64,000 nt of DNA from Escherichia coli (GTDB lineage Bacteria; Pseudomonadota; Gammaproteobacteria; Enterobacterales; Enterobacteriaceae): the NCBI RefSeq assembly GCF_044324875.1, contig NZ_CP172188.1. The stretch is one strand, 5' to 3'. This document shows, in pieces, positions 1 to 64,000 of this stretch. Position 1 is the stretch's first letter; each line of letters opens with the position of its first letter. Both the position numbers and the translations under genes were made by a program. Below the pieces are notes generated by a model. That model worked only from the letters and a program-made list of their open reading frames with translations, did not search any database and was not told the DNA's origin.

Positions 1-307
1 GGTAGAAACCGTCGAGCAAATCAAGAAAGGCAATATTCCGGAAGGCTACATTGGCTACCGCCAGCTGGCGGCGAAATGCGGCCTGACTGAAGCCAAATGT
101 CGCAACCTTGTCAACGCTTACCGGATTCCCACCGATACACATGAGTTTTTAACTCCAGAGGGGGTATTGTCGCGTCGTTCCATCGTGGCCTTATCTCCCT
201 TCATGAATGCTTTTAACCGGATGATGTCGGAGGCTGAACACCGAGGAAAACGCTGGTATCACCCCAAAATGGGGCAATTCCAGGTGATCGGTTGGGGAGG
301 TGAGTGA
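1..307 (+). CDS. Rha-family antirepressor-like protein, 5'-truncated by window edge (Ant paralog lacking fused C-terminal domain)
   Basis: Frame 2 reads VETVEQIKKGNIPEGYIGYRQLAAKCGLTEAKCRNLVNAYRIPTDTHEFLTPEG..., closely matching the central part of the ORFs at 38647..39588 and 62385..63305; ends at TGA 305..307. Confidence 0.6.
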   Translation, partial: VETVEQIKKGNIPEGYIGYRQLAAKCGLTEAKCRNLVNAYRIPTDTHEFLTPEGVLSRRSIVALSPFMNAFNRMMSEAEHRGKRWYHPKMGQFQVIGWGGE

Positions 308-504
308 TGGACATCATGCAGGCGGTAAAAAAAATCAGGGAAGGACAGGCTGAAGTGTGCCGCCGTAAAGCATGGAGTGTTGGTGTATGGGCCTGGCCTG
401 ATAATTACTCTACTACCGGATGGTTTTGTATTAATGGACTCCAGATCCGGGAAGTTGATTTATCGACGGCTGATATAGTCGGTAATGATTGGATCGTGAC
501 TTGA
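304..504 (+). CDS. small DUF2829/Tad2-like domain protein, stand-alone version of the domain fused to Ant in the other two copies
   Basis: 66 aa; GTG 304 / ATG 307 overlaps upstream stop (TGATG); motifs CRRKAWSVGVWAWP and C-terminal GNDWIV resemble DUF2829 (R-x-x-W ... DW-E/I-V). Confidence 0.45.
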   Translation: MMDIMQAVKKIREGQAEVCRRKAWSVGVWAWPDNYSTTGWFCINGLQIREVDLSTADIVGNDWIVT

Positions 505-512
505 AGCGTGAT

Positions 513-538
513 GCCCCGGCCTGGCCGGGGCTTTTTTC
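513..538. terminator. rho-independent terminator hairpin GCCCCGGCCTGGCCGGGGC + T-run (bidirectional)
   Basis: Perfect GC stem followed by TTTTTT; same hairpin recurs after the other two ant copies (39597, 63314). Confidence 0.6.
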
Positions 539-1097: not shown

Positions 1098-4000
1098 GTG
1101 AAAATAACATTCTCCATACCCTCTCAACCGTACCGCATAGCGGATTTTTTACGGTTTAGAGGGGGTAATCCTTTGGATAAACTACTTCATTCAATCAGTG
1201 AAGCCTCCAGCTTAGGCGAACTGATTGAAATTGTTAGTCGGTTGCATAAATTACGTGCTGTTGCGACCTTTGGCGTTAAGAAAGTCGATGGTGTCAGCAT
1301 TCAAAAAACACGGCGGGCAGCAAACAACGCCGCAGTAGAGCTTCTTAATTCCCTTCCGCCCGGCTTCGATGGGGCGAAATTAACTGACGAACAACGTCAG
1401 ATTCTTGCCGGGTATACCGGTGAAGGCGGCCTGACAGATGGTGAGGGCAGCCAATACGAATACTACACACCACAGTTTATGGCTGAAGGTATATGGGATC
1501 TGTTTGCTGACTACGGTATTGATGGCGGGCACGTACTGGAACCATCAGCGGGCACAGGTATTTTCCAGGAGACAAAACGGCAGGGCATGATAATGACCAG
1601 CGCCGAACTATCTCCGATTTCCGGTCGAATAAACCAGCTTTTGCACCCGGAAGACGATGTGAATATCGGGGCGTTTGAGGCGCTGGCGGCGAAAGACGCA
1701 ATGTATGACCACGCTGTTGGTAACGTACCGTTTGGTGAAGGGCGTTCCGGCGTTGCCGGGCTTGATCCGGCATATGCAAACGAGAAGAACGTTGGCAATT
1801 ACTTTGTGCTGCGCACGATCGACAAGGTTAAGCCTGGTGGACTAATTGTATTGGTGGTGCCGAATGGCATGACCGATGGTACGAAATACAAAAAATTGCG
1901 CGATAAAGTCAGCCGTAAAGCGGAATTTTTGGGCGCACATCGTATGCCTTCTGGTACGTTCAGCGAATCCGGTACAGATACAGTGGTGGACGTATGGGTA
2001 TTGCGTAAACACCCGGAAACCTTCCTGGAGATGATCCCCGACACGGATGATGCAACGCTCAAGTCGGCAAACGTCCTTTGGGATACCTTCCTCAAAGGGA
2101 AATGGTTTACAACCGAAGGGAAGCGATTTGTTTACGGCGATATGGAGCGTACCAGCTTCCGCAATACCCTGGTGGTGAAAAAGGACGGTCGTGTATCCAA
2201 TGAGTCGATGAAAAACGCTCTATCGCGCCGCTTTGAAAGCCGCATTAATTGGGATTTGCTTGGCGTAACTACTCAGGCATGGCAGGGCGCGAAAGTGGGC
2301 GATAAACGCCTTGTAGGCGGCATCTGGCATGAGTTTGATGGCCTGAAATGGGTCAAGGACGCGACAACCAAATCCTCCGCGCTTGATGTAAATCGATATG
2401 GTGTTACGACGTTTGGTGATCTGCAGATCGCGTTTCAGTCAACAAATGGCATTCTGGCGTTGTCATGGGACCAGATATCGGCGATCGCGTCCGACTATCC
2501 GTCGGTTATCAGTGATGAAGTAGCGGCAATGATTCGCTTTGCTGGCAAGCAGAGAGAAAAAGACAGAGAACGCGTTATGCGCGGCGCACTGATAGGGCAG
2601 TTGATCAACAAGGCGCTTGATAAGCGTAATCTGGGGGAAAATGTTGATGATGAACTTGCTGATGCCGCGCGCCTGGCGGAAGCCGAAATTGCGAAGTATG
2701 GTCCGCCGCACGCGATTAAGCTGAATGGGATTGCTGAAGCTGGCGCTAAAAACTGGATGACTTTCACTGGCAACGTGAAACAGGACGGCTCTGCTTCTGA
2801 CCTCCTTGCTGGACGACTTGATGTAACGGATGGTGCTGCCGGTATTGACTTTACACGCCCGGAACAAGTTGTAACCCACCTTTTCAGTGACGTGGCACTT
2901 AATCCAATCACACTGGACGATTTTCGTGAGGCGTTTGCTGGCGAACTGCCAGAAGACGAAGATGCTGCTCTGGAATACCTGGCGAAATTTGATGATATCG
3001 CTATTGATGGGTATGGCTGCCTGCTGCCGATGGACCGCGCCACCAGCGGCGATATTGCAACCAAAACAGCATTGCTGGTGGGCTGGCGTGATGCGTCAAC
3101 AGGTGAGCAGAAAGCGAACTTTGAGCGTCAGTTGGCGAAAATCGAAGAGAAACGCATTTTCACGCCACTAAATAAAGTCACCGTTAATCTGAACGCCCGC
3201 TGGCTGGATCGCCGCTTGATAAAAGAGTTCCTGGCAGAGCAGGGCTATGACGAGTTTAAGTATACAGAACCCGACCTTAAGGTTGAGGACGGCATTCTGG
3301 TATCTCCGGACGATTACGAAGGTAAGGACGGGGTATTTACTGGCTATCAACTACGAACCGTAAACGGCAAAAACGGGAATGAGTTCAAGAAGGCCAACAA
3401 TAAAGACGGCTTCCTGAACCAGTTAGAAAACTACCTGAACGGCATTAAACCGCGTGGGCAGAACGCTAACGAGTACCTGGATAAGATTGCTCAACTGGAA
3501 ATTAGCTTCAACGACTGGTTACGCACTCACCCGCAGGCTGATCAGATAGCCCGCGACTATAACGACGCATTTAATGGCTTCATCCCGTTTACGCATTCTG
3601 ACGCACCGCTTGGCCTGGAGGGGATTAGTGGGAAGCGCATTCCTCTGACTTATCAGAATGAAGAAGTTCGGCGCTTGTCAGAAGATGGGCGCGGCATCAT
3701 GGGATTTGGTACCGGGCTGGGTAAAACCACGACCGCGCTTGCGCTTGAGGCGTATAACTTCGAAACAGGTCGCACTAAACGCACGTGTATTGTTGTTCCG
3801 AAGGCGGTTTATCAGAACTGGTATCACGAGGCACAGAGCTTCTACAGTGCTGATGCCTTCGCCAATATGATGTTTATCGGTCTGGATGAAGTTCGTGATG
3901 ACAGCGGAAATATTCTGACCGCGCCGGTGCTTGATGAAAATGGCGAACCACGCCTCGACAGTAACGGGCAGCCTCTTACCCGAAATGTTGTGAAAGAGTC

Positions 4001-7000
4001 CGCCAGCGCCGTTATCGTTCAGCGCATGAACATGATCCCGTCGTCAAATTGGCGAACGGTCATCATGACAAAAGAGCAATTCGCGTCTATCCCGCTACGA
4101 GAAGAAACCATTGAGGAAAACTCACAGCAAGCGGTCTTTAATGCTGTGGAAATGGGGCGTCTTGACCTGGCATCTGGCAAACACCGTGACGCGCAGAAGA
4201 AGAACAAGATTAAGGACCAGGCCGCAAATACCGGTACAACGAAGAAGCAGAATATCCCGTACTTTGAGGATATGAACTTCGATAGCGTAATTGCCGACGA
4301 AGGGCATAACTACCGCAACTCCTTTAGCGCCGGGCGCGAAGCGGGGCAACTGGCATATTTGCCTAACCCGGCAGTATCCAAAATGGCCCGCGACATGGCT
4401 GTAAAAGCTGCGTACATGATGAAACGCAACAACGGGCGTGGTGTGGTTATGCTGACGGCAACACCGCTGGTGAACAGCCCGATTGATGCTTTCAACATGC
4501 TGTCTACTGTCATTCCGCAGGAAGAGTGGATGCGCATGGGTATTGTTACGCCGGATGATTTCGTTCGCGTGTTCGGTAAAACAGCCACAGTTCAGGTTCA
4601 GAAAATTTCCGGTGAGGTGGAAGAGAAGCAGGGACTGGTGGGCTTCCAGAACCTGGATGGTCTGCGTGGTATTTTCCATCGCTGGACTACTCTGAAGACT
4701 GCTGCGGACGTCGGGGCGACGGTAAAAATCCCTGATATTGTCGAGAATACCTTGCAGATCCCGATGACAGGAGAGCAAGAGGCCATTTACGAAGAACTTC
4801 GTAAGCGTGCACAGGAGTTAAGTAGTAAAGATGCGCTGACGGTCGATGAAAACGGGCATATCACAAACGAAAAACCGGATGATTTCATCTTCTCCATCAT
4901 CCGCGACATGGATAAGGTTGCTATAGATCCTGATCTGTATGCCAGTGCGATTACATTCCAGTTCCCCGTTGAGCTTGCAGACAAGGTAAAAGCTATTGCT
5001 GATGCCCTGCCAAAAGTAGCTGGCGGTAAAGTGGCAGATGATGTAGACGAGGCCGAAGAAGATGGCGCTGGTGGGCTGGTCAGTACGCGTACCAGCAAGG
5101 TAGTGAAGACCACCTTTAGCGAACATCCGTCGCATGTTGAAATACGTGCTGGCATTGAACTGGAAGCTGAAATACTGAAGGCCATTGCGGCTGCCGGTAT
5201 TGATATGCAGCAGGTATCACACCCCATCCCGCCGAAGTATGCCGCGCTGATCGAAAACCTTCGTGAAGGTCTGAAGAACGGTAAACAAATCGTCTTCATT
5301 GATGAAAAAGCCCAGCACCAGAAGCTGCGCCGTATTATTGCCAGTGCACTGCAAATGCCGGAGCAGGAGATAGGCATTATCAATGCGACGACAGTTAGCC
5401 AGGCTGGCGGCGTCAAGCTGAAGAAGGTGAATAAGCCGACTGAACCTACGCCAAATAAAAACGGTGAATACAAAGAAGGTGCATGGGAAACCTACTACAG
5501 CAAACTTGCCCAATATGAGGATTATCTCTCAGCTAAAAATGATGCTGGCCTTGAGGGCATGGAAGGTATTGCCGCCGACTATAACGAAGGTCGCACGCGC
5601 ATCATAATCTGTAACAAGAAGGCTGAAGTAGGTATTAACTTGCACATCGGGACAACCGATATCCACCATCTGACACTACCCTGGACTCCTGCCAGTATCG
5701 ACCAACGTAATGGGCGCGGCGCTCGGGTAGGCTCACCACAAGAAAAGGTCAATGTTCACTACTATTGTGGCAAAGGCACATTTGATGACTTCCGTCTGGA
5801 TACGCTGAAACGTAAGAAGGACTGGATCAATATGGTGATGACCTCCGACATGTCAGAGATCGCCAATGGTGATGCGGATGACGCAGATGAACGCGCCATT
5901 ATGCTGGCGGCAAATCCGGAAGAACGCCGTGCAATCATGAGTCGTCAGGCGCAAGAGCGTGAAGAACGTCTGAAACTGAAAGCCCTACGCGAAGCCAATA
6001 ATGCTCTCGATAACTACCTGAAAGCGGCGAATGCTGCCGGGAAAGATATCGGCATGATGGAGACAGAACTGAAAAGCGCGATGGAGCAGGTAGAGCATTA
6101 CCAGCGCAATCTTGACGACCTGATTAAAGCGGGGACGAACAGGAACGGGCAGAAATATGTTCTGGAACAGTTGCGAGACTACAGAAAACGTGTGCGGGAG
6201 CTACGCTTTGCGATCACCAGAGCTAAAGACGCTGACACCGTTATGAAACGTTCTCGTGGTGATCTGGAACGTGCGATTAAAGCCGGGGTTCTGGAGCTTG
6301 ATGCCGATGTATTGCAGAACCCACAGGAGTATGTACGCACTGAGAAAAATATCTTGTTGCACAAGGGCAGCCATTATCGCGCGATCATCGATGAGAATCA
6401 CAATACGACAGCAATTGTTCGTGTTACCGCCATTGATGCGGAAAGGGGCGGGTGTACGTGCCGCATATCCTGGCTGGATGTGGCTAGTCGTTACTCTCGT
6501 TCTCCGGGGACGGCATTATTTTTGCCCTTTAACCTGATAATTGAATCGGTAACCTTTGAAGAGGGAGTTGCAGAATCGCGTGAAACAGCTGCACGTGGTG
6601 TTCAATGCCACCAGCTATCAACAACACTTACGCGCGATCAGTTCTATGATGCTATTCGCAATGGGGTAATGAATGTCACTGCCGGGAAGCCTAGTAGAGT
6701 ATGGGGCGGTGGTTCAGCTATTAAATACTGGGCTTATCGCACCGATGATGGTCAGATTGCACTGTCATCGGCTTATGATGGCGTAATAGGTCAAAAAATC
6801 GGGCGAGCATCGGATATAGCGCCTGAGCGGTGGATTTACCCTGATGGCAACGATGAGGCGCTGAAGCGTGAAGTGGCAAAAATACAAGCCAGTGATAACC
6901 CGCTGAATGTCGTGGACGGCGAGGGATTCCTCCAGGCATTGTATGGATATGATTACATCCAGGGAATGCAGGCATGGGGGTCACAGGCCACGATGGATGA

Positions 7001-8012
7001 TGTTTCCCAGGAGTTTGAAAACTGGATGGCAGGGCGTGGTTTGTCCGGTCGCTCACTTAATAAAGTTACTTCTGAAGATATTCTTAGCCTGTTCCGTAAA
7101 CCGTCCGGAGAAGGGCTGGAATCTTTCTGGAAGACCGTGGTGGCATACCGTTTATTCCAGGGCAGGATGAAAGCCTTTAGCAACACTGATGACATTGAAC
7201 GGATGTTTAATCAGGTGAAGGCCGCGAAAATTACGGCGAAAATTGAGAAAACACGAGCTGCGCTGGTGGCCTGGCGCGATGCATTGTTTGAGCAATATAA
7301 ATCACTCAGCGATGCCGATGGCTGGTCGGCATTGGAGCAGCTGGCTAATAATGGTGTCGATGGAGCGAAATTAGCCATTGTTCAGGCCGATAATCCTCTG
7401 GATTCGCCAGCAGCGCAGTGGATTAAGGTGGGGGCTGTCATCAATGCATTTGATGAAAAACACATTAGTAAGGACGATTTTGCTGATGCTGTTTCTGTTA
7501 ATCGCCTGGTAGAAATGGCTACCCGTCGCGCCCGTGAGTTGAAAGACGGCGACTATGTGAATGAGTTGCCGGATGCGCTCAAATCGGCAACGTGGCAGGA
7601 CTATGTATCGCTGAAAAACGGCGGGGCCACTGAATCAGAGATCGCGGAAAGGCTTGAGCAGGCTGAAAGCAAAAGAGAAGAGCAGGCGGCAGTGGCTGAA
7701 TCCAGAGCTGATGAAGCGGCGAATGATGACTATATCATTGTGGTTAATGATAAGCCGATTCGCGCTAAGGCGCGTGTTCGCGGGCGCTGGTGGAGCGTCA
7801 GCGAAGACGTTGGCGCGGTTTATCTCATTGCCGACCAGCCAGGTTCCTCGACAATACGGAACGCCAAAGACGCGATTAAGAAGATTGGCGGGCGTTTCTG
7901 GAATTTTGAAGCAAACCCGGTTGCTGATGTGAACTTTGACCGTCCGGCATGGATGGTATCTACGCGTTACTCGGTAGATGAACTGCGTAAAATAATCGCC
8001 GATGCGGCCTAA
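1098..8012 (+). CDS. darB: DarB-like giant antirestriction protein (N6-adenine DNA methyltransferase + SF2/SNF2-like helicase)
   Basis: 2304 aa single ORF; SAM-binding motif LEPSAGTGIF, catalytic-type motif NVPFG; helicase motifs GFGTGLGKTTT (Walker A), DEGHNYRN (DEAH-like), QRNGRGARVG (motif VI); size and domain order match phage P1 DarB. Confidence 0.8.
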   Translation: MKITFSIPSQPYRIADFLRFRGGNPLDKLLHSISEASSLGELIEIVSRLHKLRAVATFGVKKVDGVSIQKTRRAANNAAVELLNSLPPGFDGAKLTDEQRQILAGYTGEGGLTDGEGSQYEYYTPQFMAEGIWDLFADYGIDGGHVLEPSAGTGIFQETKRQGMIMTSAELSPISGRINQLLHPEDDVNIGAFEALAAKDAMYDHAVGNVPFGEGRSGVAGLDPAYANEKNVGNYFVLRTIDKVKPGGLIVLVVPNGMTDGTKYKKLRDKVSRKAEFLGAHRMPSGTFSESGTDTVVDVWVLRKHPETFLEMIPDTDDATLKSANVLWDTFLKGKWFTTEGKRFVYGDMERTSFRNTLVVKKDGRVSNESMKNALSRRFESRINWDLLGVTTQAWQGAKVGDKRLVGGIWHEFDGLKWVKDATTKSSALDVNRYGVTTFGDLQIAFQSTNGILALSWDQISAIASDYPSVISDEVAAMIRFAGKQREKDRERVMRGALIGQLINKALDKRNLGENVDDELADAARLAEAEIAKYGPPHAIKLNGIAEAGAKNWMTFTGNVKQDGSASDLLAGRLDVTDGAAGIDFTRPEQVVTHLFSDVALNPITLDDFREAFAGELPEDEDAALEYLAKFDDIAIDGYGCLLPMDRATSGDIATKTALLVGWRDASTGEQKANFERQLAKIEEKRIFTPLNKVTVNLNARWLDRRLIKEFLAEQGYDEFKYTEPDLKVEDGILVSPDDYEGKDGVFTGYQLRTVNGKNGNEFKKANNKDGFLNQLENYLNGIKPRGQNANEYLDKIAQLEISFNDWLRTHPQADQIARDYNDAFNGFIPFTHSDAPLGLEGISGKRIPLTYQNEEVRRLSEDGRGIMGFGTGLGKTTTALALEAYNFETGRTKRTCIVVPKAVYQNWYHEAQSFYSADAFANMMFIGLDEVRDDSGNILTAPVLDENGEPRLDSNGQPLTRNVVKESASAVIVQRMNMIPSSNWRTVIMTKEQFASIPLREETIEENSQQAVFNAVEMGRLDLASGKHRDAQKKNKIKDQAANTGTTKKQNIPYFEDMNFDSVIADEGHNYRNSFSAGREAGQLAYLPNPAVSKMARDMAVKAAYMMKRNNGRGVVMLTATPLVNSPIDAFNMLSTVIPQEEWMRMGIVTPDDFVRVFGKTATVQVQKISGEVEEKQGLVGFQNLDGLRGIFHRWTTLKTAADVGATVKIPDIVENTLQIPMTGEQEAIYEELRKRAQELSSKDALTVDENGHITNEKPDDFIFSIIRDMDKVAIDPDLYASAITFQFPVELADKVKAIADALPKVAGGKVADDVDEAEEDGAGGLVSTRTSKVVKTTFSEHPSHVEIRAGIELEAEILKAIAAAGIDMQQVSHPIPPKYAALIENLREGLKNGKQIVFIDEKAQHQKLRRIIASALQMPEQEIGIINATTVSQAGGVKLKKVNKPTEPTPNKNGEYKEGAWETYYSKLAQYEDYLSAKNDAGLEGMEGIAADYNEGRTRIIICNKKAEVGINLHIGTTDIHHLTLPWTPASIDQRNGRGARVGSPQEKVNVHYYCGKGTFDDFRLDTLKRKKDWINMVMTSDMSEIANGDADDADERAIMLAANPEERRAIMSRQAQEREERLKLKALREANNALDNYLKAANAAGKDIGMMETELKSAMEQVEHYQRNLDDLIKAGTNRNGQKYVLEQLRDYRKRVRELRFAITRAKDADTVMKRSRGDLERAIKAGVLELDADVLQNPQEYVRTEKNILLHKGSHYRAIIDENHNTTAIVRVTAIDAERGGCTCRISWLDVASRYSRSPGTALFLPFNLIIESVTFEEGVAESRETAARGVQCHQLSTTLTRDQFYDAIRNGVMNVTAGKPSRVWGGGSAIKYWAYRTDDGQIALSSAYDGVIGQKIGRASDIAPERWIYPDGNDEALKREVAKIQASDNPLNVVDGEGFLQALYGYDYIQGMQAWGSQATMDDVSQEFENWMAGRGLSGRSLNKVTSEDILSLFRKPSGEGLESFWKTVVAYRLFQGRMKAFSNTDDIERMFNQVKAAKITAKIEKTRAALVAWRDALFEQYKSLSDADGWSALEQLANNGVDGAKLAIVQADNPLDSPAAQWIKVGAVINAFDEKHISKDDFADAVSVNRLVEMATRRARELKDGDYVNELPDALKSATWQDYVSLKNGGATESEIAERLEQAESKREEQAAVAESRADEAANDDYIIVVNDKPIRAKARVRGRWWSVSEDVGAVYLIADQPGSSTIRNAKDAIKKIGGRFWNFEANPVADVNFDRPAWMVSTRYSVDELRKIIADAA

Positions 8013-12451: not shown

Positions 12452-12528
12452 GATGGTGTAGCTCAGTAGGATAGAGCAGCAGCCTTCTAAGCTGTCGGTC
12501 GGTGGTTCGAATCCACCCACCATCGCCA
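12452..12528 (+). tRNA. tRNA-Arg (anticodon TCT)
   Basis: 77 nt; 7-bp acceptor stem GATGGTG/CACCATC, D-arm GCTC..GAGC, anticodon loop CTTCTAA, T-arm GGTGG TTCGAAT CCACC, encoded CCA. Confidence 0.9.
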
Positions 12529-12530
12529 AT

Positions 12531-12606
12531 GCCGGTTTAGCTCAGTTGGTAGAGCGCCTGCCTTGTAAGCAGGATGTCAGCGGTTCGAGTCCGTTAACCG
12601 GCACCA
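12531..12606 (+). tRNA. tRNA-Thr (anticodon TGT)
   Basis: 76 nt; acceptor GCCGGTT/AACCGGC, anticodon loop CTTGTAA, T-loop TTCGAGT, encoded CCA; P1 also carries a tRNA-Thr. Confidence 0.9.
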
Positions 12607-13561: not shown

Positions 13562-13637
13562 GGCCCTTTAGCTCAGTGGTTAGAGCTGGCGACTCATAAT
13601 CGCACGGTCACCGGTTCAAGTCCGGTAGGGGCCACCA
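13562..13637 (+). tRNA. tRNA with CAT anticodon, most likely tRNA-Ile2 (lysidine type) rather than elongator Met
   Basis: 76 nt; GGCCCTT acceptor, anticodon loop CTCATAA, T-loop TTCAAGT; resembles enterobacterial ileX-type tRNA as I recall it; P1 also encodes a tRNA-Ile. Confidence 0.85.
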
Positions 13638-38139: not shown

Positions 38140-38430
38140 GGCATTATCGTGGGGTATATTTCTACGGCACCTTAGAAAAACGGGTGCCGGGATTGGAACC
38201 CCGGATAATGCAAAAGGCGACACAGACGCCGAAAGCGTCTTTTCTTGTGTCATGCCATCGCACAGCCATACGTAGCGTTTAGCTCAGAGATCAATGGTAG
38301 TGCTGGCTGGGCTGCCGAAAGGCAGGCCGGTTCCCTTTTGCGCCGGTAGTTCCAACCCAGTCAGTGCTACCGCCATTGAGATTGGAACCTCACGCGGTAG
38401 CTCCTTAAATTAGCAAAAGGAGGCTGCCAA
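38140..38430 (+). ncRNA. candidate c4-like antisense RNA / leader region of immunity module A
   Basis: Structured leader upstream of the icd-like gene: direct repeats GATTGGAACC (38192, 38383) and a partly complementary GTTCCAACC (38346); hairpin GACGCCGAAAGCGTC + T-run near 38223. Confidence 0.3.
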
Positions 38431-38431
38431 T

Positions 38432-38647
38432 ATGGCTACTATCCCTACCCCAACTCATTCTGAATTTATCTGGCGTTTCTATTCCTGCCAAAAACACCTG
38501 TATATCTGCGTCATGGCTGCAACCGAAGCAGAAGCTCGTTCATACCTTCCTGAAGAACCCTGCATTTTTGCCGCACGCTTCACTCTTGATGCGATGGAGA
38601 TCCTCAATTACTGGAATCTGCCAATGAACTGCGTGGAGGTGCACTGA
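38432..38647 (+). CDS. Icd-like small protein (module A)
   Basis: 71 aa; paralog of 62161..62385 (shared SEFIWRF, QKH, AATE-EARS); stop overlaps ant start (TGATG) as for icd-ant coupling in P1. Confidence 0.5.
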   Translation: MATIPTPTHSEFIWRFYSCQKHLYICVMAATEAEARSYLPEEPCIFAARFTLDAMEILNYWNLPMNCVEVH

Positions 38648-39588
38648 TGAATCTGTCCATCTCTCAAAAAGCGACAATGACCAGCATTGAGATCGCGGAA
38701 CTGGTAGGAAGTCGCCAAGATAGTGTGAAGAGAACTATCGAAACACTGGCTAAAAAGAGTGTGATCCAATTTCCACAATCTGTGGAAATTGAAAATAAAC
38801 AATCAGTTGGCCCTCGTCGATTTTCCAAGGCTTACATCTTTGAAGGCGAACAAGGCAAGCGCGATAGTATCATTGTCGTCGCACAGCTCTCTCCGGAATT
38901 CACCGCCCGGCTGGTGGACCGCTGGCGCGAACTGGAGAATGCCAGGGGACCGTTAAAATCAAAAGCCGAAATCCTGGCTGAAATGGCGCAAATGCATCTT
39001 GAGCATGAACGCCGGATCAACGCCGTAAATGCCCAGGTAGCCGAGGTATCAGCACAAGTATCGATGGTCGCTGAAACACTCGAGCAAATAAAGAAAGGCA
39101 ATATGCCGGAAGGCTACATTGGCTACCGCCAGCTGGCGGCGAAATGCGGCCTGACTGAAGCCAAATGTCGCAACCTGGTTAACGCTTACCGGATACCCAC
39201 TGATACGCATGAGTTTTTGACTCCCGACGGTTTGCTTGCGCGACGCTCAATTGTGGCCCTGGCCCCCTTCCGGAAAGCCTTTAAGCAGGTTATGTCGGAG
39301 GCAGAACCACGCAACAAACGCTGGTATCATCCAAAGATGGGGATGTTTCAGGCAATCCACCATCCTGTGCCTGAAAGTCCAAAGGCAAACCTGTCGTTGC
39401 ATACCGCCAGAGAGAGGATTAAAACAGGGTATGCAATCGTATGCCGTCGAGCATCTTGGCCTGAAGGTGTATGGGTATGGCCCGAAGGTGGATCACGAAA
39501 GCACTGGCGCACTATCCGGGATGGGAAAATCCATGCGATTGATTTAGCTCCAGAGGATGTTGTTGCTACGGACTGGATTGTTAGTTAA
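38647..39588 (+). CDS. antirepressor-like protein: Rha-family N-terminal domain fused to DUF2829/Tad2-like C-terminal domain (module A)
   Basis: 313 aa; N-terminal MTSIEIAELVGSRQDSVKRTIE; C-terminal CRRASWPEGVWVWPEGG ... DLAPEDVVATDWIVS. Confidence 0.65.
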   Translation: MNLSISQKATMTSIEIAELVGSRQDSVKRTIETLAKKSVIQFPQSVEIENKQSVGPRRFSKAYIFEGEQGKRDSIIVVAQLSPEFTARLVDRWRELENARGPLKSKAEILAEMAQMHLEHERRINAVNAQVAEVSAQVSMVAETLEQIKKGNMPEGYIGYRQLAAKCGLTEAKCRNLVNAYRIPTDTHEFLTPDGLLARRSIVALAPFRKAFKQVMSEAEPRNKRWYHPKMGMFQAIHHPVPESPKANLSLHTARERIKTGYAIVCRRASWPEGVWVWPEGGSRKHWRTIRDGKIHAIDLAPEDVVATDWIVS

Positions 39589-39596
39589 TTACTGTT

Positions 39597-39620
39597 GCCC
39601 CGGCCTGTCCGGGGCTTTAA
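39597..39620 (+). terminator. rho-independent terminator
   Basis: GCCCCGGCCTGTCCGGGGCTTT. Confidence 0.6.
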
Positions 39621-60298: not shown

Positions 60299-61104
60299 TG
60301 CTTGATTCAATAGGTGAAGTTAAAGCCTTCAAAATTCTGTCAGATGCCGGTATCTCTACACCAGAATCTATAACCATAAGCCGGGCAGCTTCTGTAAAAG
60401 CCTCATCGCTCGCCAGCGCCATACAGGGAATAGTTCACGCCGATAAAACCTATCCTGATTCTGTTTCGGCCTGGACTACTCAATTGCTTGGCTTTTCTGA
60501 ACAGCTCAATGAGGCCAGCAAAGCGTCTTCATCACTGGCTGATTCTCTTTCCCCATACACCAAGCCATCAGAGCTGTTACAGATGAAGATTGGCTGGGAA
60601 TGCTACGCAAAAGGTAACGAGCTGACCCCCATACCTGCTTTCGCCCTTGTTGAGGGAATGGGGAATGTTTCCATTCCGCAATCTCTAACGGACGCATTGA
60701 CGGCGCTAAAACTTGATGCTCTGAAAACCGCCATGAACGCCATTAACGCAAAAATTGAAGCTGCCGGAAGTGCTGGTGGTGGTGAAAGCAATGGTGGACA
60801 GGGTGGTGCTGGGGGCGCTCAGGCTCCAGTCATTACTCAGGATGAAATTGATGCTTTACGGGAAGCAGTGACAGCCGCCGAAGTTTTACTCTCCGAAATT
60901 AACTCAGCAAGTGAGGGTGTCGTAGCCCTTACAGGTCGCATTAAAACGTCAACCACTCAGGCAACCAAAGGTTTAGAGAACGCTGTCGCCATCACGTTAA
61001 CTGGTTCTCTACTGGATGATGCAGTAATGAGTCCGGCAATCAGTTTAATCATGCCACAAGGCGTTATTGATGCGCTCCAAAAGAACACCAAAAAGGAACC
61101 ATAG
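60298..61104 (+). CDS. hypothetical protein (start at MLDSIGE, TAATG overlap with PAAR-like gene)
   Basis: ORF 60199..61104; Gly-rich linker GSAGGGESNGGQGGAGGAQAP. Confidence 0.45.
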   Translation: MLDSIGEVKAFKILSDAGISTPESITISRAASVKASSLASAIQGIVHADKTYPDSVSAWTTQLLGFSEQLNEASKASSSLADSLSPYTKPSELLQMKIGWECYAKGNELTPIPAFALVEGMGNVSIPQSLTDALTALKLDALKTAMNAINAKIEAAGSAGGGESNGGQGGAGGAQAPVITQDEIDALREAVTAAEVLLSEINSASEGVVALTGRIKTSTTQATKGLENAVAITLTGSLLDDAVMSPAISLIMPQGVIDALQKNTKKEP

Positions 61105-61159
61105 AAACACCACTTAGGCACACAAAAGGATGTATATTGGTACATGTTTAACACCAAAA

Positions 61160-61633
61160 ATGAACCTGAAGAGGATGGTTTTGAAAAAGATAATTTTGAT
61201 TGTAATTGCGCTTTTAGCCATTTCTGGAATTTACCGAACAACGACGGCAGTTATCGAACACATCAGGTATGTCCGATCGCTTGAAGACTCAAAATCACAA
61301 CTGGAAAGCACGAACAACACGCTTTCTACCGCATTACAGTTAAGTGAGAACGCTCGCTCAGCCATGCTGACCGAAAACGAAAGAATTAAAGCACTGGAAA
61401 AGGAGTACCAGCGCAAAACAGCAGAACTGAATGCCAACCTAATCAAACAACGAGAGGAAAGCCAGAATGAAATCACTCGCCTTGAAAATGCGTTGCGCCG
61501 TGCTGGGATTAACGATGTGCGTGTGCCTGATGACGTTATCAGGATGCAGCGGGAACGGGCAAAAGCCATCAACCAGCGTGCCAGTGAAAATTACCGTAGA
61601 AGCCACCAGCAAGCCGCAGGCAAATCTGATTGA
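61160..61633 (+). CDS. i-spanin (Rz-like): N-terminal TM anchor + periplasmic coiled-coil
   Basis: ORF 61130..61633; KKIILIVIALLAISGIY then coiled-coil. Confidence 0.6.
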   Translation: MNLKRMVLKKIILIVIALLAISGIYRTTTAVIEHIRYVRSLEDSKSQLESTNNTLSTALQLSENARSAMLTENERIKALEKEYQRKTAELNANLIKQREESQNEITRLENALRRAGINDVRVPDDVIRMQRERAKAINQRASENYRRSHQQAAGKSD

Positions 61634-61793
61634 TTACTCCCCTTGTTTAGTGCCAGAGGACACGCCAGTGCTGTTAAACAAGTATCCGACATACGCTGAA
61701 CAGTTATTCAGCACGATCGACGAATGCAACCAACGAAACGCACTGAATAACCAAAGAAACAGGGAGATTTGGGAAGGGAAGGGGCGGCAGTGA
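61467..61793 (+). CDS. o-spanin (Rz1-like lipoprotein), overlapping the i-spanin in the +1 frame
   Basis: Lipobox LTMCVCLMTLSGCSG; starts inside the i-spanin gene and extends past its stop. Confidence 0.6.
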   Translation: MKSLALKMRCAVLGLTMCVCLMTLSGCSGNGQKPSTSVPVKITVEATSKPQANLIDYSPCLVPEDTPVLLNKYPTYAEQLFSTIDECNQRNALNNQRNREIWEGKGRQ

Positions 61794-61820
61794 GCTTCAC
61801 AAAATCTATATAGCTATTTT

Positions 61821-61838
61821 ATGTTAGAAAAATAATTT
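61821..61838 (+). promoter_or_regulatory. operator-like motif copy (ATGTTAGAAAAATAATTT), candidate control site of immunity module B
   Basis: Consensus copy ~100 nt upstream of the c4-like leader. Confidence 0.5.
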
Positions 61839-61899
61839 GAATTTTCGAACATAAACAATAAAATAAATCATCAAAAATTTGATGTTGATCTTCCATGTT

Positions 61900-62160
61900 T
61901 TCAGGCTTATATTCACGCCGTTGCAGCAAATTCTGCGACCGGGTTTAGCAGCCTGAATGTACATGCGGACAACCGCAGATATCCGATATTGCGGTATTTT
62001 TGTGTCCGTAAAACCATGTTACGCCCGAATTATGGTGGGGCGTGATGGGGAGGCTTCGGCCTGCTGGTTTCATGTACGCCAGTCTGCTAACCCCGTCACG
62101 TCCTGCCACCCGTTTAGCAGCGGGTAGCAGGTTGTTAAACCTGTACATGAGGCCGTAACT
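61900..62160 (+). ncRNA. candidate c4-like antisense RNA locus of immunity module B
   Basis: Paired elements a=TTTAGCAG and b=GTACATG occur at 61945/61958 and again at 62112/62141; complements (CATGTAC at 62066, CTGCTAA at 62085) lie between in reversed order. Confidence 0.35.
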
Positions 62161-62385
62161 ATGGTTAATGCCAATCCTTGCTCACGTCCAGAATTCATCT
62201 GGCGTTTTCACTCCCTGCAAAAACACTGCGATCACTTCGCAATTGCCGCAACTGAAAAAGAAGCCCGTTCTCTGATCCCTGATCAGTATGGTGTTCTTAC
62301 TGGTCGTTTCTCTACTTCCCCACAACCAAACACTAATCCCTGGTATCGCAATATTACCAATCCCGGAATTGCGGAGGCACACTGA
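62161..62385 (+). CDS. Icd-like small protein (module B)
   Basis: 74 aa; paralog of 38432..38647; stop overlaps ant start (TGATG). Confidence 0.5.
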   Translation: MVNANPCSRPEFIWRFHSLQKHCDHFAIAATEKEARSLIPDQYGVLTGRFSTSPQPNTNPWYRNITNPGIAEAH

Positions 62386-63305
62386 TGGATATCTGCATTC
62401 TTGAAAAGCCATCAATGACCAGCATTGAGATCGCGGAGCTGGTGGGAAGTCGTCCAGATAACGTAAAAATATCAATAGAGCGCCTGGCTAAATCTGGAGT
62501 TATTCAACTTCCTGCATTGCAGGTTTTCGAAAAAATCAATAACTTAGGACTACGCCGTAGTGTCGAGGCTTACGTCTTCGAAGGCGAGCAAGGCAAACGA
62601 GACAGCATTATTGTCGTTGCGCAGCTCTCTCCCGAATTCACCGCCCGGCTGGTGGACCGCTGGCGCGAACTGGAAGAACAAGTACGCCAGCCGTTGACCG
62701 AAATAGAGATGATCGCCGCAATGGCTGCAAATGCAGTTCAGCAGCAAAAGCGGCTTCATGTTGTTGAGTCAAAGGTTAGCCAGGTTGCTGAAACCGTCGA
62801 GCAGATCAAGAAGGGCAACATGCCAGAAGGTTACATTGGCTACCGCCAGCTGGCGGCGAAATGTGGCCTGACTGAAGCCAAATGTCGCAACCTGGTTAAC
62901 GCTTTCCGGATTCCCACCGATACGCATGAGTTTTTAACTCCAGATGGTTTGCTTGCGCGACGCTCCATTGTGGCCCTGGCCCCCTTCCGGAAAGCCTTTA
63001 AGCAGGTGATGTCGGAGGCAGAACCACGCAACAAACGCTGGTATCATCCGAAGATGGGGCTGTTTCAGGCAATCCATCATCCTGTGCCTGAAAGCCCAAA
63101 GGATAATCTGTCACTACATACCGTCAGAGAGAAGATCAGGACTGGATACGCAACAGTGTGTCGTCGTTCTTCCTGGCCTGAAGGTATATGGGTGTGGCCC
63201 GAAGGTGGATCACGAAAGCACTGGCGCACTATCCGGGACGGGAAAATCCATGCTATTGATTTAGCGCCAGAGGATATTGTTGCTACGGACTGGATTGTTA
63301 GTTAA
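62385..63305 (+). CDS. antirepressor-like protein: Rha-family N-terminal domain fused to DUF2829/Tad2-like domain (module B)
   Basis: 306 aa; N-terminal 60 aa and middle linker differ from module A, C-terminal 200 aa nearly identical. Confidence 0.65.
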   Translation: MDICILEKPSMTSIEIAELVGSRPDNVKISIERLAKSGVIQLPALQVFEKINNLGLRRSVEAYVFEGEQGKRDSIIVVAQLSPEFTARLVDRWRELEEQVRQPLTEIEMIAAMAANAVQQQKRLHVVESKVSQVAETVEQIKKGNMPEGYIGYRQLAAKCGLTEAKCRNLVNAFRIPTDTHEFLTPDGLLARRSIVALAPFRKAFKQVMSEAEPRNKRWYHPKMGLFQAIHHPVPESPKDNLSLHTVREKIRTGYATVCRRSSWPEGIWVWPEGGSRKHWRTIRDGKIHAIDLAPEDIVATDWIVS

Positions 63306-63313
63306 TTACTGTT

Positions 63314-63336
63314 GCCCCGGCCTGTCCGGGGCTTTC
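63314..63336. terminator. terminator hairpin
   Basis: GCCCCGGCCTGTCCGGGGCTTTCG. Confidence 0.55.
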
Positions 63337-63340
63337 GTGA

Positions 63341-63745
63341 CTAAAAATCTGTTCGCTGTCGCCATGCGTTTTTTAACTCAGGAATATCCGCCATTTCAAT
63401 TAACTTGCGAAGTCCAGCACTGACTTTCCCATTGCCAACCATAGCAAGCCAATCTCTTACAGCTTTCGGCATGTAGAGCGTTGCAGTTACCGGCTCTTCA
63501 ACCCTGGCAGGACATCCGCATACAGGCCATTTAATTGATTCCATAACTTCGGATGCCGGGGTGAGGGCGGGGACATTGAGTATATCTCTACCAGAAAACT
63601 GGATAACGATCCGTTCAGCGAGCGAGAGTATCTCACTTTCGGCAAGAATTGATGCCAACTGCGCCTCAACAAGAAAGCGACTTGTTGTGTTCAGAGAGTG
63701 GCTCTTAGCGCCATTTTTATACGAAACAAAGATTCGATACGCCAT
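63341..63745 (-). CDS. hypothetical protein
   Basis: 134-aa ORF; operator-like motif just upstream of its start. Confidence 0.45.
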   Translation of the reverse strand: MAYRIFVSYKNGAKSHSLNTTSRFLVEAQLASILAESEILSLAERIVIQFSGRDILNVPALTPASEVMESIKWPVCGCPARVEEPVTATLYMPKAVRDWLAMVGNGKVSAGLRKLIEMADIPELKNAWRQRTDF

Positions 63746-63758
63746 AACTCTAATGATT

Positions 63759-63778
63759 TGTGTTAGAAAACTAAAATT
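63759..63778 (+). promoter_or_regulatory. operator-like motif copy (TGTGTTAGAAAACTAAAATT)
   Basis: 14 nt upstream of the 63341..63745 start. Confidence 0.5.
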
Positions 63779-64000
63779 AAATCACATAACAACATGTGTG
63801 TTAATAGATTTTATTTTACTAAACCTATTGACTAAATCACAAAGTAGGTATTGTTAGCCCGTCAAAAGAACCTTCACGCCGCGCCCGAATTTAGGGCTTA
63901 ACCGTGAATAAAAACATTCAGCCAGCTCGTGATCGCGAGCGCGAGATTATGAATCGGGCGGCAAGCGTCATGGCTATGACCGTCGATCCGACCACCGATG

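Follow-up and report, generated by a model that had tools for sequence, protein, structure and literature searches.

Known Tad2 sponges are free-standing early proteins of lytic and temperate phages. Members such as SPO1 gp34.65, HgmTad2/AcrIIA7, and ModTad2 are small phage-encoded proteins built from a first helix (α1), a five-stranded antiparallel sheet, and a short helix before the last strand. This fold assembles obligately into a homotetramer (10.1101/2023.05.01.538930), and the family has diversified to histidine-ADP-ribose (His-ADPR), cyclic nucleoside monophosphates (cNMPs), N7-cyclic ADP-ribose (N7-cADPR), and cyclic dinucleotides (10.1101/2025.08.24.671296; 10.1101/2023.11.15.567273). 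The second system of relevance is the immI operon of phages P1 and P7, which consists of the C4 RNA, its a1/b1 targets, icd, and a downstream regulator gene that is translationally coupled to icd. Here, we describe a 64,000-nucleotide stretch of Escherichia coli DNA (contig NZ_CP172188.1 of assembly GCF_044324875.1, termed the window) with three operons of the immI type, denoted copies A, B, and C, each carrying an extra 3′ module that is absent from P1. From profile comparisons and predicted structures, we assign the module to the Tad2 fold as a remote, minimal member related to Tad2/DUF2829. It forms the tail of a 313-residue protein in copy A (38647..39588) and of a 306-residue protein in copy B (62385..63305), and is a separate 65-residue protein in copy C (307..504), all on the + strand. 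A literature search found no paper tying Tad2/DUF2829 to antirepressors, Rha, or phage-plasmids, nor Tad2 to C4 antisense control.

The initial annotation had read the C-terminal region as a DUF2829/Tad2-like domain, which stands as a remote homology; the Pfam match is marginal. The 65-residue protein matches PF11195 (Tad2-like/DUF2829) with an E-value of 0.07 over model positions 1–72 of 73, and the tails of the fused proteins have no Pfam match even at E up to 10. The family member P0124, 42% identical to the 65-residue protein, reaches PF11195 at E 8.6e-5 (family profile E 2e-10), and three of the five family members do so at 0.1 or better. In hhalign, comparing the profile of the module family with that of canonical Tad2 (41 homologues) gives an end-to-end alignment of 64 columns at P 4e-4. 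The score of 24.4 is reached by none of 200 column shuffles (mean 10.7, standard deviation 2.4, maximum 18.8), and the reversed alignment scores 11.6. The AlphaFold2 (AF2) model of the 65-residue protein, with a predicted local distance difference test (pLDDT) of 76, has an N-terminal helix, a five-stranded antiparallel sheet, and a helix before the last strand, which is the Tad2 order. Foldseek places five SPO1 Tad2 chains on top for this model in the PDB (probability 0.96–0.99), and the first AFDB50 matches beyond the family’s own members are DUF2829 proteins of 66–70 residues. Tad2 is the top structural match of the module in two methods. The convergence of the P0124 match, the profile–profile comparison, and AF2/Foldseek is the basis of the assignment. 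Direct sequence searches yielded little. A phmmer search of the PDB with the 65-residue protein had no match, the family profile gave chance matches only and no Tad2 in the PDB, scans of NCBIfam and PADLOC had no match for the module, and a word-indexed protein search with the 65-residue protein returned three matches. PHROGs places the tail and the separate 65-residue protein in phrog_7385, of unknown function (E 1.8e-49 for the latter). A relation to P1 Coi, the 69-residue C1 inactivator, which also served as the control for the profile comparison, was rejected (hhalign P 0.64).

Several residues of the Tad2 scaffold are common to SPO1 Tad2 and the module, namely G17, R22, W25, D79, and D84-W85 in SPO1 numbering. 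We identify SPO1 Tad2 with gp34.65, in which the numbering agrees with the published positions W25, N26, W73, T78, and D79 (10.1101/2023.05.01.538930). A striking resemblance between SPO1 Tad2 and the fused tail is seen in the C-terminal stretch KIHA-x6-D-V-x-A-x-DW-x-IVS. Within the module family, twelve positions are invariant out to relatives of 32–42% identity. The family-specific invariants C18, R19, R20, G26, W28, and P31 lie mostly in β1, the β1-β2 loop, and β2, beside the canonical pocket, and the invariant motifs C-R-R and G-x-W-x-[WF]-P are the module’s own, unlike Tad2. The module is also short, with 65 residues against 89 in SPO1 Tad2 and 72–156 among the homologues sampled, and it does not keep N26, G27, K28, T65, W73, S76, Q77, and T78 of Tad2, which vary little or not at all across the 41 canonical proteins. 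Unlike known Tad2 proteins, the module also comes as a fusion with, or in coupling to, an antirepressor-type gene, under presumed C4 antisense control.

The protein in the ant position is modular. In copy A, a Rha winged helix (residues 11–98) is followed by a long helix (106–149), a conserved middle domain (151–237), a proline-rich linker (238–250), and the Tad2-like tail (249–313; 65 codons at 39391..39585); the tail of copy B is encoded at 63108..63302, and the two fused proteins are 79% identical. The Rha-type head of the initial annotation is confirmed by Pfam (Phage_pRha, PF09669, residues 11–98, E 8.6e-6) over the whole model, positions 1–91 of 91, while the NCBIfam model TIGR02681 misses its curated cut-off (18 bits versus 46, copy C only). 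In the full-length AF2 model (pLDDT 68), the winged-helix head leads into a 44-residue helix, a second α/β domain (157–234), a disordered segment (237–261), and the tail. The antirepressor identity fared less evenly. PHROGs assigns the whole protein to phrog_63 (“anti-repressor Ant”), which also holds P1 Ant1, but BLASTP aligns it with P1 Ant1 only marginally (E 0.013 over 67 residues), so the label is presumptive and follows from position. As in the Rha/Roi/ORF6N/KilA-N modular phage regulators, a class of domain-shuffled antirepressors, the N-terminal winged-helix head is swappable for ORF6N with the remainder kept. Unlike the proteins here, the relatives listed from other phages, including those of Klebsiella and Stx phages, match residues 1–237 only and lack the Tad2-like tail.

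Copy C enters the window with the 3′ part of its Rha-type gene (101 codons, 2..307, + strand) and is split as first annotated. The Rha reading frame ends with TGA at 305..307, and the next frame starts at ATG 307, or alternatively at GTG 304 to give 66 residues, and runs to 504. The ATG start shares one base with the preceding stop codon (TGATG), and a GGAGG Shine–Dalgarno sequence lies 6 nt upstream. In plasmid pF374-2 (locus L004), the full copy consists of the c4-a1b1 element, the C4 RNA gene, icd, a 235-residue Rha gene (2100–2807), and the 65-residue gene. The 65-residue protein aligns to the last 65 residues of the fused proteins with 40–42% identity, and the fused and split junctions differ by a 17-nt indel. 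An assembly artefact was rejected as the origin of the split copy.

The window comes from an E. coli phage-plasmid of the D6-like type (P1 family). The DNA surrounding the genes described here is 100% identical to E. coli plasmids such as pRHB39-C21_3 (CP057047.1) and pF374-2 (NZ_OY754373.1). It matches phage D6, a plasmid prophage of the P1 family, at 97% identity; the D6 record labels the 313-residue gene “putative anti-repressor” and the preceding gene icd. Copy A shares the P1 genomic neighborhood (sim, pmgF), with homologues of ref, pmgF, simB, and mat as neighbors. Each locus is a P1 immI-type operon of promoter, C4 antisense RNA, icd, Rha-type putative antirepressor, Tad2-fold module, and shared terminator hairpin. 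Rfam detects a C4 antisense RNA gene (RF01695) 5′ of each copy, at 38290..38377 (76.7 bits) for copy A, 62028..62113 (71.7 bits) for copy B, and L004:1743-1828 for copy C. The a1/b1 target element (RF03163) is matched for copies B (61907..61959) and C, and an isrK-type leader (38167..38245) occupies its position in copy A. The small genes between C4 and ant match the Icd-like model NF033153, at 38432..38647 in copy A (E 3.3e-13) and 62161..62385 in copy B. The junctions from icd to ant in copies A and B, and from ant to the 65-residue gene in copy C, have the common form GGAGG-N5/6-TGATG with a one-base overlap. A hairpin, GCCCCGGCCTG(G/T)CCGGGGC, lies after the stop codons of all three copies. 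In copy A, it lies at 39597..39615 (GCCCCGGCCTGTCCGGGGC, with a short T run), in copy B it is of the identical type (63314..63332), and in copy C it ends the operon at 513..537 with eight G-C pairs and a full T run, scoring as an intrinsic terminator; all of these features are on the + strand. The recurrence of C4, icd, a coupled ant, and the shared hairpin at each copy therefore defines three P1 immI-type operons, where P1 has one. According to the P1 record, C4 represses translation of icd/ant, and Ant antagonises C1. By analogy, C4 would gate the copies described here.

The leader of copy A and the C4 genes have parallels in related records. An isrK match (an Hfq-binding small RNA) also lies 5′ of C4 at L011:3002-3080 in the P1-like Punavirus JL22, and the isrK-type and c4-a1b1 leaders may be alternative forms of one C4-target region. 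JL22 also has an extra operon of C4, an icd-like gene, and a 370-residue ‘Roi’ gene between pacB and c1 (L011:3125-4597), which has no Tad2-like tail. Rha/Roi-type genes gated by C4 are thus frequent among such phages. The ‘ash family protein’ annotated in CP057047.1 at window positions 38294-38413 overlaps the C4 gene of copy A and is probably a mis-called reading frame. Directly downstream of operon C are a TIGR02594-family gene of 161 residues (537-1022, − strand) and a 2304-residue gene (1098-8012, + strand), which related plasmid records name as SNF2-related or DEAD/DEAH box helicase family and which looks similar to DarB of P1. Three tRNA genes follow on the + strand at 12452-12525, 12531-12603, and 13562-13634.

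The three copies are mosaics of one another. In sliding identity profiles, copies B and C match each other at 91–100% across c4, icd, and the coiled coil, and copies A and B at 90–97% across the middle domain, linker, and tail, so that copy B is a chimera of a copy C-like 5′ part and a copy A-like 3′ half. A common 3′ ancestry is shown as well. The recognition part of the Rha head differs among all three copies (47–65%), and the stand-alone module is about 40% identical to the fused tails at the protein level. The C4 genes of copies B and C are ~91–94% identical to each other. Across c4/icd, both copies match phage P7 at ~89% identity, so the plasmid carries two immI specificities. Cassette B (c4-icd-ant, ~61900-63335) is absent from this position in D6, which aligns to 51% of 60800-64000 in two pieces.

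The modular shuffling proposed in the initial annotation extends beyond what was claimed. The E. coli plasmid pEC7-3 encodes a 332-residue protein (L017:1011-2009) in which an ORF6N head (PF10543, E 1.5e-11) replaces Rha. From residue ~120 (PLKSKAEIL...), it is nearly the same as residues 102-313 of copy A, tail included, with one substitution seen. Two phage-plasmid contigs of ~90 kb carry a stand-alone Tad2-like frame of 96 or 68 residues (L008:4752-5291 and L009:4746-5207), which begins 45–53 nt after C4, in the slot of icd, with no icd or Rha gene present. The constant partner of the module is the C4-controlled operon and not the Rha protein, as the ORF6N swap and the stand-alone frames right behind C4 demonstrate. 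When PLSDB was searched for further plasmids like L008, the sole match was to the C4 RNA segment. A 53%-identity variant on the Salmonella plasmid pSa1423-160k (L013) was dropped, as it lies in a heavily frameshifted stretch. Plasmid p1506-1 carries an 81-residue fused-tail remnant (L018:1762-2007), annotated ‘transcriptional regulator’, beside an integrase and IS26; its terminal DW has become NW, and it is probably a degenerating fragment.

With tblastn, the module is found in 122 of 72,556 plasmids at 223 places, one to four per plasmid, from Escherichia, Salmonella, and Shigella, and the reading frame is intact at full length in 121 of the 122 plasmid records. Among 5,426 complete E. coli genomes, 108 (~2%) contain the fused tail at the DNA level, with 116 of the 120 places on plasmids. 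D6 is the sole phage with the module among 50,697 records.

We tentatively favor, at somewhat under an even chance, a reading of the module as a diverged, minimal sponge of the Tad2 type, with altered ligand specificity and a putative anti-defense role. The fold, the conserved residues on the pocket side, the autonomy of the module, and an expression logic of on at infection and off in the lysogen are the reasons for this choice. As an autonomous unit of this operon class, the module takes three forms: by itself in the icd slot right behind C4, as a translationally coupled gene after ant, or joined to ant by a flexible linker. In a lysogen, C4 would block translation of the operon, which would limit synthesis of the module to fresh infections or to loss of C4 control. 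It would thus be expressed when the phage must blunt signaling-based host immunity, and the lysogen’s own immunity would otherwise be left intact. Its ligand may be a nucleotide-like signal other than canonical 3′ cyclic ADP-ribose (3′cADPR), and the fusion may be a secondary event that created a bifunctional protein, not a sensor-regulator. For these copies, antirepressor activity, oligomerization, and ligand binding are all presumptive.

Several observations weigh against the sponge and the kinship on which it is built. PF11195 is not called at the Pfam threshold on any window protein, the AF2 confidence for the module is moderate (76 alone and ~50 inside the full-length model), and the family is tiny, with five representatives in an exhaustive profile search of 1.84 billion proteins. 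The module is without the β2-β3 insertion (SPO1 residues 36-59), which holds helix α2, part of the Tad2 dimer interface. Among the seven published contacts of SPO1 Tad2 to glyco-cyclic ADP-ribose (gcADPR), namely W25, N26, I63, T65, W73, T78, and D79, only W25 (W23 of the module) and D79 (D56) are kept. The other five, constant or almost so in the 41 canonical Tad2 proteins, are replaced. N26 is changed to S/P, W73 to V/I/Y/F, and T78 to A/E/N, and I63 and T65 have no aligned counterpart. Since these contacts and the insertion are lost, binding of canonical 3′cADPR is doubtful and the term ‘ligand-binding-like’ of the initial annotation is weakened, though a remodeled pocket is plausible from the residues conserved. 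Selection on the stand-alone frame adds a further point. Its close alleles have a ratio of non-synonymous to synonymous substitution rates (dN/dS) of ~1 or above on small counts (one pair has one synonymous versus seven non-synonymous differences), which could reflect relaxed constraint rather than an arms race. The replacements cluster at residues 25–29, 34, 45–46, 51, and 57. For the same plasmid pair (the window and L014), the last 90 codons of the Rha gene (37-306) have a synonymous rate (dS) of 0.34 and a dN/dS of 0.06, and the drop to a dS of only 0.025 in the 65-residue frame (307-501) points to recent recombinational replacement of the 3′ module. The pattern fits a module that was recently exchanged and evolves neutrally or under diversifying selection. 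Positive selection is not claimed, as the counts are too small and a dN/dS of ~1 is indistinguishable from neutrality.

The strongest competitor, which we consider rather unlikely, is that the module is a protein–protein or oligomerization accessory of the antirepressor that binds no small molecule and either tetramerizes Ant or contacts a C1-type repressor or other partner. An obligately homotetrameric fold (10.1101/2023.05.01.538930) that has lost the majority of its ligand-contact residues would suit such a role, as would the constant position of the module at the 3′ end of immI operons and its fusion in most copies. The fused domain is also under purifying selection, as the tails of copies A and B differ by 17 synonymous and 7 non-synonymous changes (dN/dS 0.09; 0.04 for the middle domain). 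Against an accessory, however, stand the occurrence of the module alone behind C4 in operons without Ant, and the close Rha and middle-domain relatives in other phages that stop at about residue 237 without it. The disordered linker and the missing helix α2 of the Tad2 dimer interface argue in the same direction.

An allosteric role, in which a host immune or metabolic nucleotide bound by the tail switches the antirepressor and so ties derepression to the signal, is improbable. It draws on the physical joining of a ligand-binding fold to a regulator, seen in copies A and B and once more behind an ORF6N head elsewhere, and on the conservation of pocket-equivalent positions. Yet the split and stand-alone forms make covalent linkage dispensable, and a disordered linker of 13–25 residues offers no fixed interface. 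If C4 gating is P1-like, Ant would be untranslated in lysogens and no sensor would be present to respond. The coupling of derepression to sensing suggested by the initial annotation is, as an obligatory feature, unlikely, since the module also occurs unfused, in some operons with no Ant at all, and disorder is predicted for the fusion linker.

We give equally little weight to a decaying passenger without current function, with the stand-alone copy drifting and the fusions as accidental read-throughs. The dN/dS of the close stand-alone alleles, the existence of the frameshifted variants P0002 and P0003, and the IS26-adjacent remnant would fit decay, but the full-length frame in nearly all plasmid records, the twelve invariant positions, the low dN/dS of the fused domain, and the conservation of the Shine–Dalgarno sequence and coupling junction do not. 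A very improbable variant would make the tail a receptor that recognizes a second messenger of host immunity and switches the attached putative antirepressor, by which a lysogen would sense the firing of abortive infection and derepress to escape a doomed cell.

The locus places a minimal, strongly diverged Tad2-fold module within the lysis–lysogeny switch of a widespread group of enterobacterial phage-plasmids. If the module is an accessory of Ant, a sponge fold would have been recruited for regulation. If it is a sponge, the operons would show a temperate element that restricts anti-defense to the moment of infection, the ligand range of Tad2 would be widened through a remodeled pocket, and the 65 residues of the module would represent a natural minimal scaffold.
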